Origin: an uncultured Gemmatimonadales bacterium
GTDB lineage: Bacteria > Gemmatimonadota > Gemmatimonadetes > Gemmatimonadales > GWC2-71-9
Length of the DNA stretch: 64,000 nucleotides
Reading direction: 5' to 3'
Assembly: GCA_963748815.1 (NCBI GenBank)
Contig: CAVVKJ010000014.1
Span: 64,001-128,000 of the forward strand
The position numbers were made by a program, and so were the translations under genes. Shown piece after piece: positions 23,032-44,611 of this stretch; the first letter of the stretch is position 1, and every line of letters begins with the position of its first letter. The notes under the pieces were generated by a model that saw nothing but the letters and a program-made list of their open reading frames with translations, had not been told where the DNA came from and searched no databases.

Positions 23032-25078
23032 ATGGCTACCACCCTGTTCAAGGTCGAGGCGCCGTTCGAACCCGCGGGCGACCAGCCCCGCGCCATCGAG
23101 GAGCTCACCGCCGGGCTGCGCCGGGGCGATGCCTACCAGACGCTCCTCGGCGTGACCGGCTCCGGCAAGACGATGACCCTCGCGAACGTCATCGCCGCCT
23201 ACGGCCGCCCGACCCTGGTCCTCTCCCACAACAAGACCCTCGCCGCGCAGCTCTACGGCGAATTGCGCCAGTTCCTGCCCACCAACGCGGTGGAGTACTT
23301 CGTCTCGTACTACGACTACTACCAGCCCGAGGCCTACGTCCCGAGCTCCGACGTCTACATCGAGAAGGATGCCTCGATCAACGAGGACATCGAGCGGCTG
23401 CGGCTCCGCGCCACCTCCAGCCTCATCGAGCGGGAAGACGTCGTGATCGTCGCCACCGTCAGCGCCATTTACGGCCTCGGTGATCCGGTCGAGTACCGCG
23501 CCCAGATGGTCACGGTGGAGCAGGGGAGCGAACGGGGGCGGGATTCAATCCTCGAGGCGCTCGTCGCCATCCAGTACAGCCGGAACGACGTCAGCTTCGA
23601 GCCCGGCACCTTTCGCGTCCGGGGCGACACCGTCGAGATCTTCCCCGCCTACGAGGAGCGCGCCGTCCGCATCGAGCTCTGGGGCGACACGGTAGAGCGA
23701 ATCACCAAGATCAATCCGCTCACCGGCGAGGCGCTGCAGGCCATGCCGCGCTGCGCCATCTACCCGGCCAAGCATTTCGTGACGCAGCGGGCCAAGATCG
23801 AGCGCGCGGTGCGCATCATCCGCGAGGAACTCGCCGAGCGGCTCAAGGTGCTCCGTGAGGCTGGCAAGCTGCTCGAAGCGCAGCGGCTCGAGACCCGCAC
23901 CCACTTCGACATCGACATGCTGCTCGAGGTCGGCATCTGCTCCGGCATCGAGAACTACTCCCGCCACCTCAGCGGCCGCGCCGAGGGCGAACGCCCCGCC
24001 TGTCTCTTCGACTACTTCCCGCCGGAGTTCCTGGTGGTGGTGGACGAGTCGCACGTCACCCTGCCCGCAGATCGGCGGGATGTCGAACGGCGACCGGGCC
24101 CGGAAGGAAACGCTGGTCGAGTACGGCTTTCGCCTCCCGTCGGCGCTCGACAACCGCCCGCTCCGGTTCGACGAGTTCCTGGCCCTCGCCCCACAGATGA
24201 TCAACGTCTCGGCCACGCCGGGCGATCTCGAACTCAAGCTGTCGGGCGGCGCCATCGTCGAGCAGATCATCCGCCCCACCGGGCTCATCGATCCCCTGGT
24301 CGAGATCCGGCCGGTCAAGGGCCAGGTCGACGACCTGCTGCACGAAATCCGCGAACGCACCCGTCGCAAGGAGCGGGTGCTCGTGACCACCCTCACCAAG
24401 CGGATGTCCGAGGACCTCACCGACTATTTCCAGCAGCACGGGGTCGCGGTGCGCTATCTCCACTCCGACATCGACGCCATCGAGCGGATCGAGATCCTGC
24501 GCGGCCTCCGCCTTGGCGACTTCGACGTGCTGGTCGGCATCAACCTCCTCCGCGAGGGGCTCGACCTCCCGGAGGTGTCGCTGGTGGCCATTCTCGACGC
24601 CGACCAGGAGGGGTTCCTCCGCTCCGACCGTTCGCTGATCCAGACCGTCGGCCGGGCCGCCCGCCACCTCGGCGGGCTCGGCATCCTCTACGCCGACCGG
24701 ATCACCGGCTCGATGGAACGGGCGCTGCGCGAAATGGACCGGCGCCGCGCCATCCAGGTCGCCCACAACGAGGAGCACGGCATCACCCCGCGCTCCATCG
24801 TCAAGTCGTTCGAGCAGGTGCGGCTCTCCACCTACGTGGCCGACGCCCGCGCCGAGAAGGTCGAGCCGATCGCGGCGGGGTCGCTCGTGCGCGAGGACCT
24901 GCACGACCCGGCCGTCCGCGCCAAGACCATCGCGGCGCTGGAGCGGCAGATGAAGGAGGCGGCGGCCAACCTGGAGTTCGAGCTCGCGGCGCTCCTCCGC
25001 GACCAGGTGAACGACCTCAAGGCGTCGGGCGCTCCCGACGTCCGGCGGGACGGCGGTCGACGGCGGAGGTTCGCCTGA
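23032..25078 (+). CDS. uvrB: Excinuclease ABC subunit B; +1 frameshift at ~24067
   Basis: [36 protein letters not shown], then [29 protein letters not shown]-terminal UVR helix. Confidence 0.96.
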
Positions 25079-25486
25079 TGCGGGAGGTGACGGAGGCCCA
25101 GCTCGTGGCGGAGGGCGAGGAGCTGGGACGCACCCTCCCCCCCGGCGCCATTCTCACTCTTCGAGGGCGACCTCGGCGCCGGCAAGACCACCTTCATCCG
25201 CGCCATCGTGCGCGGCCTGGGCGTCGAGCCCCCCGCCACCAGCCCGACCTACGCGCTCGTGCACCGCTACGCCGGACGGCGGGGGCCGGTCTTCCACCTC
25301 GACTGCTACCGCCTCCGCGATCCCGAGGAGGCCGCCGACCTCGACTGGGAGTCGCTGCTCACCGACGGCGACGCCGTGCTCATCGAATGGCCCGAAAAGG
25401 CCGGCGCCTGGGTTCCCGAGCCGACCATGCGGTTCCGGCTGACGCATCTCGACGACCCGGGCCGCCGCGCGCTGGAGTCGTTCTGA
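25078..25486 (+). CDS. tsaE: tRNA t6A biosynthesis ATPase TsaE; +1 frameshift at ~25159
   Basis: After the shift [32 protein letters not shown]. Confidence 0.9.
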
Positions 25487-26205
25487 TGTGGCTCGCCCTC
25501 GAGACCTCCTCGGACCGGGCCTCCGTCGCCGTCGGGCAGCCGGGACGAGTCCTCGCCGAGACCAGCCTCGAAGGGGCGCGCCAGCACGCCGGCGCCCTCC
25601 CTCGGCTCATCGAGGAAGCGCTGGCCCAGGCCGGGACGGAACTCGCCGCGCTCGAGGCGGTCATCCTCGGCGACGGCCCGGGCAGTTTCACCGGGCTGCG
25701 GGTGGGCGCCTCGGTCGCGAAGGCGCTGGTCCGCTCGCATCGGCTCGCCTTCTACACCACCCCCGCGCTCGCCGCGGTCGCGCTGGCGGCCAGGCCGTCG
25801 CCGGAGGAGCGGGTGCTCGCCGTGGCGAACGCGCTCCGCGGCGAGGTCTACGCCGCGGAATACCGGTTCCCGGAGGGGCGGGTCGAGGTGCTGCAGGCGC
25901 CGGCCGTCTGGCTGCCCGAGCGCCTCCTCGCCGACTGCCCGGTGCCCGACGTCGTCTGCGGCATCGTTCCCGAGGGGCTGGCCGACCGGCTGGCGGAGTG
26001 GCAGGCCGGCCGCCATCCGCGGACCGTGCGCGGTGTGGCCACGGCGGGCGCGCTGCTGGAGCTCACGGCACGCGCCGACGGCGCGGTGCGCGTGGCCGCG
26101 CCCGCGCAGTGGGAACCGCAGTACGGTCGGCCGGCGGAAGCACAGGCCAAGTGGGAACGGGATCATGGACAGACACTCCCCGATTCGCCCGGCCACTTTC
26201 GCTGA
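25486..26205 (+). CDS. tsaB: tRNA t6A biosynthesis protein TsaB
   Basis: [37 protein letters not shown] coupling to tsaE. Confidence 0.9.
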
Positions 26206-32939: not shown

Positions 32940-33527
32940 ATGAAGTCCCGTTCCCTGATCGTCTTTGCCCTCCTCGCCGCGGCCGCATGCGGCGGCAAGA
33001 AGCCCGCGGAGACACCCGCGCCGGCGCCGGCCCCGGCCCCCATCGACAGCACGGCCATCAAGGCCCGGATGCGCCAGGACTCGATCAACGCCGCCGAGGC
33101 GCGTGCCCGCGCCGCTGCGGAAGCCGCCGCGGCCGCCGCCGCGAAGCTGCAGGCGCAGCTCACCGCCGAAGTGACGTCGATGATCCACTTCGACTACGAC
33201 AAGTCGGATATCAAGCCGGAAGACCAGGCCGCCCTCAACCGGAAGGCCGCCATCCTCAAGGCCAACCCGGCCCTCATGATCCAGATCGCCGGCAACTGCG
33301 ACAACCGCGGGTCCGATGAGTACAACCTGGCCCTTGGCAATCGCCGCGCAGCGGCCGCCCAGCGCTACCTGATCAATCAGGGCGTCTCCGCCGGCCAGAT
33401 CAGCATCGTCTCCTACGGCGAGGAGCGTCCCGTCGACGCGGCCAATACCGAGTCGGCCTGGGCCATGAACCGGAACGACCAGTTCACGCCGACGGCCGGC
33501 GGCAACAACCTGATGGCGCCGAAGTGA
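32940..33527 (+). CDS. pal: Peptidoglycan-associated lipoprotein Pal
   Basis: Lipobox AAAAC; IHFDYDKSDI, GNCDNRGSDEYNLALGNRRA, SYGEERP. Confidence 0.92.
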   Translation: MKSRSLIVFALLAAAACGGKKPAETPAPAPAPAPIDSTAIKARMRQDSINAAEARARAAAEAAAAAAAKLQAQLTAEVTSMIHFDYDKSDIKPEDQAALNRKAAILKANPALMIQIAGNCDNRGSDEYNLALGNRRAAAAQRYLINQGVSAGQISIVSYGEERPVDAANTESAWAMNRNDQFTPTAGGNNLMAPK

Positions 33528-34285
33528 TCCGAAGGATCGCGCCGATCCTCGTGGTGGCGACCGTCGCTCTGGGGGGCTGTGCCCTCCGGAGCGACGTGCG
33601 CCGGCTCGAGGAGCAGTTGACAACCATGCAGGACGAGTCCGACCGCCGCGACTCGCTGCTCGCGGCGCAGCTCACGCAGGTGATGGCCCTCCAGCGGCAG
33701 GCGAACGACTCGCTGGCGTCCGTCGAAGCGAGCCTCCTCACCTTTCGCGGCGAGACGCTCGGGCAGCTCTACGACGTCCAGAAGCAGCTGCTGCAGGTTC
33801 AGGAGCTGACGGGGCTGAGCAGCCGTCGGCTGAACGAGCTGCGGGGCGAGCTCGACGCCCGCGGGCAGCAGTTGAGCGGGGTCACGCCGGCCGCCGGGGG
33901 CCCCACCAGCGCCTCGGCGGTGCAGATGTACGAGGCCTCGCTCCAGCAGTTGCGCCGCGGCAGCACCGGGACCGCGCGCGCCGGATTCCGGCAGTTCCTC
34001 GACCAGTATCCCACCGCGTCGGAAGCGCCCGACGCCCTCTACTTCATCGGAGAGAGCTTCAGCACGGACGCGCCCGACTCCGCGGCGGCCTACTACACGC
34101 AGGTCGCCGACACGTACCCGGCCTCCCCGCGCGCCGCGAGCGCGCTGTACCGGCTGGGGTCGATGGCGGAGTCCGCTCGCGACACCGCGGCCGCCCGCGG
34201 CTATTACCAGCGGCTGATCGCGAAGTACCCGACGTCGAACGAGGCCGCGCTCGCCCGCGACCGCCTGAAGGCGCTCGGGCAGTAG
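33524..34285 (+). CDS. cpoB: CpoB/YbgF tol-pal TPR protein
   Basis: Lipobox LGGC, coiled coil, TPRs FLDQYPT..DALYFIGE, YPASPRAASALYRLG. Confidence 0.85.
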   Translation: MIRRIAPILVVATVALGGCALRSDVRRLEEQLTTMQDESDRRDSLLAAQLTQVMALQRQANDSLASVEASLLTFRGETLGQLYDVQKQLLQVQELTGLSSRRLNELRGELDARGQQLSGVTPAAGGPTSASAVQMYEASLQQLRRGSTGTARAGFRQFLDQYPTASEAPDALYFIGESFSTDAPDSAAAYYTQVADTYPASPRAASALYRLGSMAESARDTAAARGYYQRLIAKYPTSNEAALARDRLKALGQ

Positions 34286-34304: not shown

Positions 34305-37300
34305 ATGGCCGCCTCCCGTGGCGAGATGCCGTTTCTCGATCACCTCGAGGAGCTGCGTTCGCGCCTGATCAAGACGCTGGTCGCGGTCATCGTCGGGTTC
34401 GGGGCCGGCCTGTGGATCGTCCAGCGCTTTCAGTTCGTCTCCCTCCTCAAGGAACCGATCGCGCCCTACCTGATCGACGGCCGGCTCACCATCCTGAGCC
34501 CGACCGAACCGGTCATGATCGTGCTGAAGCTCTCCCTGTTGATCGGGCTGGTCCTCTCCTCGCCGTTTCTCCTCTATCAAGTCTGGGGATTCCTTTCCCC
34601 GGCGCTCTACGAGAAGGAACGCCGCGCCTTCGTCCCGGCCCTGATCGTGGGAACGCTGCTCTTCATCGTCGGCGCCGGTCTCGGCTACGTGTTCGTGGTG
34701 CCGCAGGCGCTCCGCGTCCTCTTCAGTTTCCAGACCGAGGCGCTCCAGCCGATGATCACGTACGACGCCTATTTCAGCTTCGTGCTGCAGATCCTCGTCG
34801 GACTGGGCCTGTCGTTCGAGATTCCGCTGGTCATCACCATCCTGGCGGGGTTCGGGCTCATCACGCCGGCGGCCCTCAACCGGTTCCGGCGCTTCGAGAT
34901 CGTCCTCGCCTTTGCCGCCGGGGCGCTGCTTTCGCCGGGCGCCGATGTGCTCTCGATGCTGATGATGACCTTCCCGATCCTGCTGCTGTACGAGGTCGGG
35001 GTGGCGGGGGCCATCGTGATGCACCGTCGCCGGCTCCGGCGTGCGGCGTCGGCCGCCGTCGCGGGGCTCGTCGCGCTCGCCATCTGGGGGACGCCGGCCC
35101 AGGCGCAGGACCCGCAAGTGCGCGACCGCCCCACGAAGCCGGTGCCGAAGCAGACGACGCCGGGTGCCCCCGGAGCACCCGGTGCCGCGCCGGCGACCCC
35201 CGACGACTCCCTCGCCCTCGCCAAGGTGCAGGGGGGCCAGGCGGTGGACACCGCCGCCGCGCGGCGCCTCGGCCTCCCGACGGCGCCCGTCTTTCCGTTC
35301 CCCGATCCCGACTCCACCATGCAGAGCCTCCTCCTGCGGCAGGGGTACGTGGTGACCCGGTATCGGGCCGACTCGGTGACGCTCTTCGCCCAGGACAAGC
35401 GAATCCTGATGACGGGAGAGGCGCGCACCGAGCGGGAGGGCGCGACGCTGGAGGCCGGCGAAATCGACTACCAGGACGCCAAGGGCCTGCTCGACGCCCG
35501 CGGGTCGCCGATGCTCTTCAGCGAGGGCAACATCCTGGTGGGCAAGGAGATCCGCTACTACACCGATTCAAAGAGGGGCGTCGTCACCGGCGCCCTCACG
35601 AGTTTTGATCAGGGGGGCACCGAGTGGTTTCTGCGCGGCAGCATCGCGCAGGACTCGAGTTCCCGCCGCATCTACGCCCAGTCGAGCGAAATCACCAGCT
35701 GCGACCTGCCCGACCCGCACTACCATTTCTCCGCCGGTGAGGTGAAGTGGATCAGCGGCACGGTGATGGTGGCCCGCCCGACCGTCCTCTACGTGCGGGA
35801 CGTGCCGGTCATGTGGCTGCCGTTCGTGTTCCAGGACGGCCGGCCCGACCGCCACTCGGGGATCCTGATTCCCCGGATCGGCATCAACGACGTGGTGCGG
35901 TCGTCGTCCACCTACAACCGCCAGATCACGAATCTCGGCTACTACTGGGCGACCAGCGACTATTTCGACCTGACCGCCCGGTTCGACTGGCTCGATAACC
36001 GGTATTCCACCCTGGCGGTCCTCGGGCGCTACCGGTGGCTCGACCGCTTCACCTCCGGCTCCATCGGGCTCAGCCGGCAGTGGGCCTCCGACGGTGGGCG
36101 CTCCACCGGCGTCATCTGGGATCACCACCAGATCTTCTCGCTCAACAGCTCCGTCAACCTGTCGCTGAACTACGTGACGAACAGCAGCATCGTCCGGAAC
36201 AACGCGATCGACCCGCTCCTGACCACCCAGCAGATCACGAGCGCGCTGAACTATACGCATCGCTACGGGTGGGGCACGCTGACCCTCGGCGGCAACCTCC
36301 GGCAGAACCTCGAGAACAACAGCCTCACCAGCCAGCTGCCGGCCATCACCCTGAGTCCCAAGCCGGTCAATATCGGCTCGCACGTGACCTGGTCGCCGGG
36401 GCTGTCGTTTGCCACTGAGTGGCAGCAAAAACAGCTGCTCGGCGCGCCGGACACCCTCGTCCTGGTCGGCGGTGTGGTCGACACCGTGCGCACCACCTTC
36501 AACGCGCGGGCCACCACCTTCAGCCTGGAAACGCCGTTTCGGGTCGGGAACTTCAACTGGCGGAACAGCATCCGCTTTACCGACGCCGAAGACACCAAGC
36601 GCACCACGAGGCGACAGTACGTGCCCGACCCGGATAATCCGGGGGATTCGGTGCTGGTGTCCACCACGTATGGGGGGACGTACACCTCCGGGCTCAATTG
36701 GGACACCGGCATCAACCTGCCGCTGCTCTTTCGCGGGTCGTGGAAGCTGCAGCCGTCGGTCGGGGTGACGAACGTGGTCGGGGGCCAGCCCTACCTGGTC
36801 CGCAACGAGACGACCAACGGGGAATGGGTGGCCCAGTCCAAGCGATTCGCGTTCAACATCTCCTCCAATCCCACCTTCTTTGGGTTCTACCCCGGGTTCG
36901 CCGGCTTCCAGCGCATCCGGCACAGTTTCTCGCCGGTCATTACCTACGCGATGGCGCCGTCCGCCGACATTCCGCTCGACTTCGCGGTGGCGACCGACTA
37001 CCGGAGGGCGGGCGCCATTTCGCTCACCAGCCCGCGCACCGAGCTGCTGGCGTTCGGGCTCAACCAGAACATCGAGGGCAAAAAGCTCAATCCCGGCGCG
37101 GACAGCGCCGGACAGGACGGGGGCAAGAAGCAGCGGGTGCTGAGCATCGCGACGAGCCCGATCGGCTACGATTTCGAGCAGGCCAAGGAGCCGGGCCGCA
37201 CCGGATGGATTACCCCGTCGCTCACCAATTCGTTCCAGAGTGATCTGCTCCCGGGGTTCAACCTGGCAATTACACACAGCCTCTGGGACGGCCCGGTTGG

Positions 37301-37826
37301 CTACGACAGCACGTCGTTCGATTTCGCGCTGCAGCAGGTAGGCCTCAGCTTCGCGGTCTCGTCCGCGACCTTCGCTCCGCTCCTGCGTCTGTTCGGATTG
37401 TCCGCCCCAGCCCCTGGCACCGCGGCCGACCCCGACATCCGCGGCTACGTGGCCGACTCCTACCGCCCGGTTCGACCGGGCCCCGAGGCGATCTACGGCA
37501 ACAATTTCGGTTCGACGCCCCTCGGGCGGGCCTTTCGCGCGAACGTCAGTTACACCTACCAGAAGCTCGATCGCGCCGGGATTGCGCAATCCAATATCGG
37601 GTTCAACACCACCTTCTCCCCGACGCCCCTCTGGGGACTCTCCTGGTCCACGCAGTACAACGTGACCGCCGGCACCTTCGAGTCGCAGATCATCCGGCTG
37701 GAGCGCGAGCTGCACGAGTGGCGGGCGGGGTTCAACTTCGTGCGGAACCCCAACGGCAACGTGACGCTCTACTTCTCGATCTCGCTGACCGACCTTCCCG
37801 AGATGAAGCTGGACTACAACCAGTAG
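34305..37826 (+). CDS. tatC: TatC fused in frame to an LptD-like outer-membrane LPS assembly protein
   Basis: aa 1-~245: EMPFLDHLEELRSRL, YQVWGFLSPALYEKE, FEIP, LLYEVG. Then a signal-like segment and LptD-type motifs (ITSCDLPDPHYH, RHSGILIP, NLGYYWA, LERELHEWRAGF). Confidence 0.82.
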   Translation: MAASRGEMPFLDHLEELRSRLIKTLVAVIVGFGAGLWIVQRFQFVSLLKEPIAPYLIDGRLTILSPTEPVMIVLKLSLLIGLVLSSPFLLYQVWGFLSPALYEKERRAFVPALIVGTLLFIVGAGLGYVFVVPQALRVLFSFQTEALQPMITYDAYFSFVLQILVGLGLSFEIPLVITILAGFGLITPAALNRFRRFEIVLAFAAGALLSPGADVLSMLMMTFPILLLYEVGVAGAIVMHRRRLRRAASAAVAGLVALAIWGTPAQAQDPQVRDRPTKPVPKQTTPGAPGAPGAAPATPDDSLALAKVQGGQAVDTAAARRLGLPTAPVFPFPDPDSTMQSLLLRQGYVVTRYRADSVTLFAQDKRILMTGEARTEREGATLEAGEIDYQDAKGLLDARGSPMLFSEGNILVGKEIRYYTDSKRGVVTGALTSFDQGGTEWFLRGSIAQDSSSRRIYAQSSEITSCDLPDPHYHFSAGEVKWISGTVMVARPTVLYVRDVPVMWLPFVFQDGRPDRHSGILIPRIGINDVVRSSSTYNRQITNLGYYWATSDYFDLTARFDWLDNRYSTLAVLGRYRWLDRFTSGSIGLSRQWASDGGRSTGVIWDHHQIFSLNSSVNLSLNYVTNSSIVRNNAIDPLLTTQQITSALNYTHRYGWGTLTLGGNLRQNLENNSLTSQLPAITLSPKPVNIGSHVTWSPGLSFATEWQQKQLLGAPDTLVLVGGVVDTVRTTFNARATTFSLETPFRVGNFNWRNSIRFTDAEDTKRTTRRQYVPDPDNPGDSVLVSTTYGGTYTSGLNWDTGINLPLLFRGSWKLQPSVGVTNVVGGQPYLVRNETTNGEWVAQSKRFAFNISSNPTFFGFYPGFAGFQRIRHSFSPVITYAMAPSADIPLDFAVATDYRRAGAISLTSPRTELLAFGLNQNIEGKKLNPGADSAGQDGGKKQRVLSIATSPIGYDFEQAKEPGRTGWITPSLTNSFQSDLLPGFNLAITHSLWDGPVGYDSTSFDFALQQVGLSFAVSSATFAPLLRLFGLSAPAPGTAADPDIRGYVADSYRPVRPGPEAIYGNNFGSTPLGRAFRANVSYTYQKLDRAGIAQSNIGFNTTFSPTPLWGLSWSTQYNVTAGTFESQIIRLERELHEWRAGFNFVRNPNGNVTLYFSISLTDLPEMKLDYNQ

Positions 37827-44353: not shown

Positions 44354-44611
44354 ATGCTCGGAAACATCGGTTTCTCCGAATTGATGATCCTCATGGTGGT
44401 CGTGTTGCTGGTCTTCGGCGCGAAGCGGCTGCCCGAGATCGGCTCCTCCATCGGCAAGGGGATCCGGGAGTTCAAGCGCAGCATCTCGGACGCCGGCGAC
44501 GCCATCAACAGCGCCCCGGACGATCGCACCCAGTTGCCGCGCTCCATGGATGCCCCCCCGCCGAACAGCACGGTGAGCGGATCGGGCGAGCCGAAACGGC
44601 TCTCGCAGTAA
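44354..44611 (+). CDS. tatA: Twin-arginine translocase TatA
   Basis: IGFSELMILMVVVLLVFGAKRLPEIGSSIGKGIREFK. Confidence 0.93.
   Translation: MLGNIGFSELMILMVVVLLVFGAKRLPEIGSSIGKGIREFKRSISDAGDAINSAPDDRTQLPRSMDAPPPNSTVSGSGEPKRLSQ

Follow-up and report, generated by a model that had tools for sequence, protein, structure and literature searches.

Precursors that join a polytopic inner-membrane protein to an exported protein have a bacterial precedent in FbcH of Bradyrhizobium japonicum, reportedly described by Thony-Meyer, James and Hennecke in 1991 as the product of one gene, a cytochrome b-c1 precursor with an internal signal peptide for which signal-peptidase cleavage was shown. Here we examine a 64,000-nucleotide stretch of an uncultured Gemmatimonadales genome (contig CAVVKJ010000014.1, positions 64,001 to 128,000 of the forward strand; hereafter the window), in which a single open reading frame (ORF) joins tatC to lptD with an internal signal between the two mature proteins, as in an FbcH-type polyprotein. 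We think it very probable that TatC-LptD is processed by signal peptidase in the same manner, with cleavage predicted here rather than demonstrated as it reportedly was for FbcH. FbcH is said to give two subunits of one inner-membrane complex, whereas the predicted products here belong to unrelated machines in different membranes, the second being an outer-membrane beta-barrel. In flavi-, pesti- and bunyavirus polyproteins an internal signal likewise follows a membrane segment and is cut by host signal peptidase, but these are viral genes acting at the eukaryotic endoplasmic reticulum and not bacterial housekeeping genes. Our literature search, with most subscription journals outside its coverage, found no paper on a TatC-LptD fusion, and no paper on a bacterial internal-signal polyprotein turned up. 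The fusion is family-wide and apparently undescribed, with a mechanism that has bacterial precedent, and public records label these proteins as TatC only. Below, G-numbers are genomes and L-numbers are fetched loci of this analysis; G000 is the source genome (86% complete), f1 is its family, and f2, f3 and f7 are other families of the same phylum.

The fusion ORF (34305-37826, plus strand, as are all window features below) encodes 1173 amino acids in one frame without an internal stop, with a predicted precursor mass of 128.7 kDa, and the frame is kept open in homologues and in relatives' genomes. An earlier note on this DNA had read it as a complete TatC followed by an LptD, and Pfam, AlphaFold and Foldseek agree. 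The TatC six-helix core (aa 1-240; 34305..35024) matches PF00902 at aa 12-224 (E 1.2e-58, 198.8 bits against a cut-off of 25.1) and passes TIGR00945 (193.2 bits, cut-off 132.7), while hydropathy, AlphaFold2 and Foldseek give six membrane helices in a TatC fold, with Aquifex TatC (4B4A) matched at E 9.5e-51 and, as a fold, at a target TM-score of 0.80 and 42% identity. The LptD half matches PF19838 (LptD_2) at aa 489-958 (E 1.1e-30, 107.2 bits against 22.5), and proteobacterial LptD models fall far under their cut-offs (PRK03761, 20.8 against 683; PRK04423, 18.3 against 944). Our AlphaFold2 model, built from an 80-row alignment (mean pLDDT 80.4, pTM 0.57), comprises the six TatC helices, a disordered stretch at aa 257-313 (pLDDT below 50), a jellyroll and a large barrel. 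Within this stretch lies the Pro/Ala-rich N-terminal arm of mature LptD (aa 268-313; 35106..35243); the periplasmic beta-jellyroll (about aa 351-511; 35355..35837) is placed by the strand pattern of the model and weak TIGR03002 and PRK03761 matches, and the outer-membrane beta-barrel (about aa 540-1173; 35922..37823) by Pfam, AlphaFold and Foldseek. Its last 9 residues are of low confidence. Foldseek ranks 1 to 15 are all LptD-type entries (best 8H1S, E 7e-27), and TatC structures follow.

The ORF is a real fusion and not an assembly slip. The earlier note had cautioned that a run of five G at 35006-35010 and a TGATG at 35017-35021 could betray two genes joined by a sequencing or assembly artefact; both are present, and the caution was reasonable because G000 carries indel errors in other genes, but it is removed by the conservation of the fusion across the family. 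The search for relatives' proteins with both domains, which the note had proposed, found TatC and LptD Pfam domains together in 119 of 120 listed homologues, nearly all the named ones from Gemmatimonadales. Among 61 whole genomes, one stop-free full-length match was present in 25 of the 37 from f1 (G000 included), the remainder being mostly contig fragments or frameshifts elsewhere, with 4 truly split. Of 407 matches in 401 genomes sampled across the phylum, the best 150, counted by hand, comprised 146 from f1, in 140 of which the frame runs past TatC (11 of these frames are 381-1010 aa long, 6 of them stopping at contig ends) and 6 of which are split (G397, G182, G026, G096, G363 and G148, confirmed on fetched loci); the 4 non-f1 rows have frames of 269-282 aa. 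The 170 fetched loci, a redundant set, include 126 fused, 34 split (8 of which look like frameshifts away from the junction) and 10 with one half only. Three Logan contigs from three other studies, X1 (34305-35165), X2 (34740-35546) and X6 (34802-35338), cross the junction in frame without an indel at the G run; these are contigs rather than raw reads, X1 or X2 may be related to the source sample, and in X6 a +1 and a -1 at 35116/35120 compensate each other. Both features are incidental: of 111 fused junctions 13 have TGATG at this position, and in the fused relatives L004, L007 and L014 synonymous changes interrupt the G run. A frameshift at the G run is refuted by the independent genomes and the contigs across the junction, and we accord an artefact practically no probability.

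The sequence between the two halves reads as the earlier note quoted it, basic, then hydrophobic, then A-x-A-Q, with Q268 starting at 35106. It consists of an Arg-rich n-region (aa 241-247; 35025..35045) assigned from charge and RR counts and derived from the TatC cytoplasmic tail, an h-region (aa 248-261; 35046..35087) that hydropathy and alignment mark as the seventh and weakest hydrophobic segment (1.58 over aa 247-265), and a c-region with a predicted signal peptidase I site, A265-Q-A267/Q268 (35088..35108), supported by motif and alignment. The predicted cut lies between A267 and Q268, that is between 35105 and 35106, and homologues align with A267; a cut after A265 likewise fits the site rule. 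Signal calls follow heuristics of our own rather than SignalP, and for 111 distinct fused junctions, which include kin and are not independent, we allowed any Gln 3-13 residues after the h-region and used matching control windows. A small/aliphatic-x-small-Gln site was found at that distance in 110 of the 111, against 289 of 4778 windows (6%) in mature parts, while the sequence flanking the site is highly variable. Position -1 is Ala in 103 junctions and position -3 is Ala or Leu in 96, with -2 free (14 different residues), and the n-region carries a net charge of at least +1 in all 111. RR is present in 98 of the fused n-regions and in 24 of 27 split TatC tails, and the junction is a hybrid whose Arg cluster matches the free TatC tail and whose h- and c-regions match the free LptD signal. 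The note's view that the TatC tail doubles as the LptD signal peptide thus stands as to a conserved signal-like site, with only the Arg cluster coming from that tail. AlphaFold2 merges helix 6 with the signal into a single helix of low confidence, which is uninformative on topology and cleavage; the pattern across junctions supports a segment that behaves evolutionarily like a working Sec/signal-peptidase-I signal.

The same signature is found at the N-termini of other G000 proteins. A crude scan of its 2388 called ORFs found the cleavage motif followed by Gln in 192 of 313 candidate N-terminal signals (61%), against 142 of 3294 controls (4%). This resembles the Q-rule, Gln at +1 of signal peptides in Bacteroidetes (PMC5837995), and no gemmatimonad is named in the main text of that paper. 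A search for glutaminyl cyclase in G000 gave 13 M28-family matches as candidates. The internal site of TatC-LptD therefore carries the signature of freshly cut N-termini in G000, which would be of little use on an uncut anchor.

We propose that SRP/Sec would insert TatC, with the Arg cluster remaining inside as expected from the established topology of TatC, six helices and a cytoplasmic C-terminus. The seventh segment would then enter the translocon N-in/C-out and the LptD chain would be threaded unfolded into the periplasm, where the single LepB would cut at A-x-A/Q268 to release a 99.6 kDa LptD. This would begin with Gln, which may cyclise to pyroglutamate, and be assembled with LptE by chaperones and BAM. 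A 29.1 kDa TatC would be left, its seventh helix retained or trimmed later, and the two proteins would be synthesized 1:1. Several points weigh against this proposal: 1 of the 111 junctions (L145) has no cleavage motif, the G000 h-region is weak at 1.58, and conservation of the motif demonstrates selection on it rather than the extent of cutting. The export of about 900 residues behind the seventh segment of a co-translationally inserted protein, though plausible, is itself a hypothetical mechanism. If cleavage does take place, two core envelope machines in two membranes come from one polypeptide, and an outer-membrane barrel of about 900 residues leaves the cytoplasm behind a six-helix membrane protein, a natural test of how Sec passes from co-translational insertion to the export of a long chain and of how far TatC tolerates a permanent seventh helix by its TatA-binding face. 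The genomes with fused, re-split and replaced TatC would serve as a natural control series. It also matters for annotation that N-terminal signal predictors are blind to the LptD of the fusion. The surprise is limited by the bacterial precedent for the mechanism and by a fusion that looks tolerated rather than adaptive.

With an artefact set aside, the same junction could in principle be read in three other ways. An uncut protein might form a trans-envelope tether in which LptD stays fixed to the inner membrane by TatC and the seventh helix while the arm and jellyroll span the periplasm, placing the Lpt bridge beside the Tat site. The open frame persists across the whole family, and helix and jellyroll are separated by about 80 residues, of which 57 are predicted to be disordered, a stretch that if extended could cross the periplasm. 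An uncut anchor would have no reason, however, to keep Ala at -1, a small residue at -3 and Gln at +1 in 110 of 111 junctions, and the arm is no longer in fused forms than in split ones (Gln to GLP, a median of 42 residues against 32-48 in 14 split loci); the presence of LptC in G000 and in 21 of 24 other f1 genomes and about seven re-splittings of the fusion also count against a tether, which we regard as very unlikely. A further alternative, to which we give slightly less credence, is that translation restarts internally at the end of helix 6 (M240) and makes most of the LptD, with read-through only supplying TatC. Met is found at position 240 in 15 of 15 same-genus loci, and 92 of the 111 junctions have an in-frame ATG, GTG or TTG in the region, but ATG is present in only 34, ATG with a Shine-Dalgarno match of at least 4 bases in 2, and any start with such a match in 23. 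Moreover, without a stop codon TatC must come from the long product, so cleavage would be needed even with a restart; a restart could add to cleavage in this genus, not replace it.

The RR pairs of the n-regions also allow for a twin-arginine signal acting in cis, which would bind its own TatC, whose signal-binding residues are intact, and either direct Tat export of LptD or auto-inhibit TatC until cut. Yet RR is equally common in free TatC tails, the strict S/T-R-R-x-F-L/I and the looser R-R-x-[FL]-hydrophobic patterns each occur in 0 of 111 junctions, and the segment is not confidently packed in the model (pLDDT 49 at aa 251-260). Outer-membrane barrels, furthermore, cross the inner membrane unfolded through Sec. 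A cis-acting Tat signal is accordingly very improbable in our view, and the junction as a Tat signal peptide in the ordinary sense was rejected (consensus S/T-R-R-x-F-L-K in 0 of 111).

Comparison with split relatives suggests how the fusion arose. The tatC stop codon and the lptD start codon overlap or adjoin in f2, f3 and f7 (as GTGA, ATGA and the like), where the free LptD opens with a typical signal peptide ending Ala/Gly-Gln. These coupled pairs (L029, L030, L037-L050, L089 and L090) share with the fusion the gene order, the LptD signal and the Arg-rich TatC tail, and differ in a stop codon at the lptD start that gives two proteins with no internal cleavage. By this comparison the fusion arose through loss of the stop codon in an overlapped tatC-lptD pair near the base of f1. 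We placed the fused and split states on trees of 82 LptD and 88-90 TatC rows, made with fast methods (FastTree for LptD, rooted on one long f7 row), without an AU test, and leaving out 8 loci with frameshifts, 5 that were truncated or foreign, duplicates and one set of extra fused loci. In the LptD tree f1, f2 and f3 each form one clade (support 97, 100 and 100), and the fused/split state needs 9 changes; the simplest reading, with the contig-end row L015 out and G047 in, is a fusion at the base of f1, a fusion in G047 and seven re-splittings. The starred branches make 7 changes the minimum for the f1 split label (L015 still counted), so the f1 split forms are not one ancestral clade. The re-split lineages are nested in fused clades: one re-split is common to G026, G096 and G363, beside the fused G209, and five re-splits are single genomes (G017, G148, G182, G397 and the one with L153). 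In the re-split loci (L031, L032, L051, L053-L056 and L153) an overlapping stop/start was regained before the same h/c-region.

The G047 fusion (f2; L216, G047:C6:67800-73000), 1253 aa from the match start, is known from this one genome, whose split sister has an 89% identical TatC and which itself holds a second free tatC. It is probably independent of the f1 fusion, though it may be an assembly error. In G023 and G028 there is no tatC between cpoB and lptD, the upstream order being as in G000 (L033-L036, L181-L184), and the TatC of these genomes lies on another contig and groups with f2 (support 99-100), which suggests replacement by transfer, with a binning error possible. The repeated re-splitting and the replacement of TatC argue for a fusion that is tolerated rather than required, 1:1 synthesis included. 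The earlier note had proposed that the fusion ties Tat and LPS-export levels 1:1; that this is its purpose is not supported, given that the ancestors were already coupled, that the fusion re-split about seven times and that the TatC half was lost in G023 and G028. A search beyond the phylum for longer proteins, with a Bacteroidota-type TatC as query, gave 7 matches, 4 with TatC and LptD_2 at similar length and two of the other 3 with metabolic domains, which is weak evidence on fusions there.

Both halves look functional and non-redundant, given the single tatC and lptD, the partner genes and the conserved TatC residues in G000. Compared with known TatC (4B4A; E. coli 9DZZ), the full six-helix core and the conserved signal-binding residues are shared: H13, E16, F96, P99, E105 and Y229 are invariant in 57 of 57 fused rows, and D214 is kept in 55. 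The signal-binding F94/E103 pair and helix-5 D211 of E. coli TatC (PMC5102672) would correspond to F96, E105 and D214. Unlike the proteins of PF00902 and TIGR00945, this one is extended at its C-terminus by a seventh hydrophobic segment and 900 more residues, and its TatC is paired with a single TatA-family protein. A whole-genome tblastn search found one tatC in G000, and the only tatA-family gene found there (44354..44611; one profile match, G000:C14:108366-108500) points to a TatAC-type system. Fused and split relatives both normally have just one TatA-family gene, and on that ground we reject the fusion as a TatB substitute.

The LptD half shares the jellyroll and large barrel of solved LptDs (8H1S, 4Q35 and 5IV9), and its partner genes are present, but identity is only 11-14% and it has no free N-terminal signal. 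It also differs in that this copy has one Cys only. Across the 80 alignment rows, Cys occupies the aa-421 and aa-466 columns in 59 and 63 rows, with C466 alone kept in G000; the Cys421/Cys466 pair of relatives is a possible jellyroll disulfide. G000 has one lptD, with no second copy by tblastn, and one LepB. LptC is present, and we reject the fusion as an LptC substitute; LptF/G was found, and LptE, missed by Pfam in G000, was recovered there by tblastn at 91% identity. An apparent loss of LptE from f1 (5 of 24 by Pfam) is at least in G000 a detection failure. With one tatC, lptD and LepB beside LptC, LptE and LptF/G, no Lpt part needs replacing. The PF03968 profile had no match in G000, and an LptA-like ORF, read by eye only, adjoins lptC. 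On other contigs, genes resembling lptA and lptG look broken by frame errors.

TatC-LptD may not be the only such junction in this genome. Scanning G000 for segments that look like internal signals yielded 14 matches in 12 ORFs; the majority are ordinary membrane segments or wrongly called starts, and two lie in a Bat-like operon (L185), whose parts we take to be BatE, BatB and BatC. One is a BatD-TPR-SH3 (BatE-like) fusion on the minus strand (L185:2180-4774 = G000:C10:487679-490273), with an internal basic-hydrophobic segment ending Ala/Gly-Gln that, judged by eye, lies in the same place in 29 of 30 relatives' loci. The frame is long in 29 of the 30, f2 included, and split in one (L214), and BatD-BatE appears to be a second conserved fusion with the same type of junction. 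The other is a vWA (BatB-like)-TPR (BatC-like) protein (L185:4525-6150, minus strand), in which a similar segment ends Ala-Gln-Ala-Gln. We lean, by a little over even odds, towards cleaved polyproteins being recurrent and overlooked in Gemmatimonadales, with coupled genes fusing and re-splitting while the downstream signal survives as an internal site; TatC-LptD, with two or more origins, and BatD-BatE would be examples, and probably BatB-BatC too. If so, one polypeptide yields an inner-membrane translocase, a naturally seven-helix TatC, and an outer-membrane barrel.

Upstream of the fusion, and separated from its start by 19 bases, lies a cpoB/ybgF-like gene (33524..34285), the last of a tolQR-tolA/tonB-tolB-pal-like cluster; these names come from reading translations, with no profile scan. 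Elsewhere in the window (23032-26205), uvrB-like and tsaE/tsaB-like genes fall into pieces in different frames, probably through long-read indel errors. Two frames of 473 aa on G000:C8, separated by about 3.2 kb, have identical printed sequences, either a tandem duplication or an assembly repeat.

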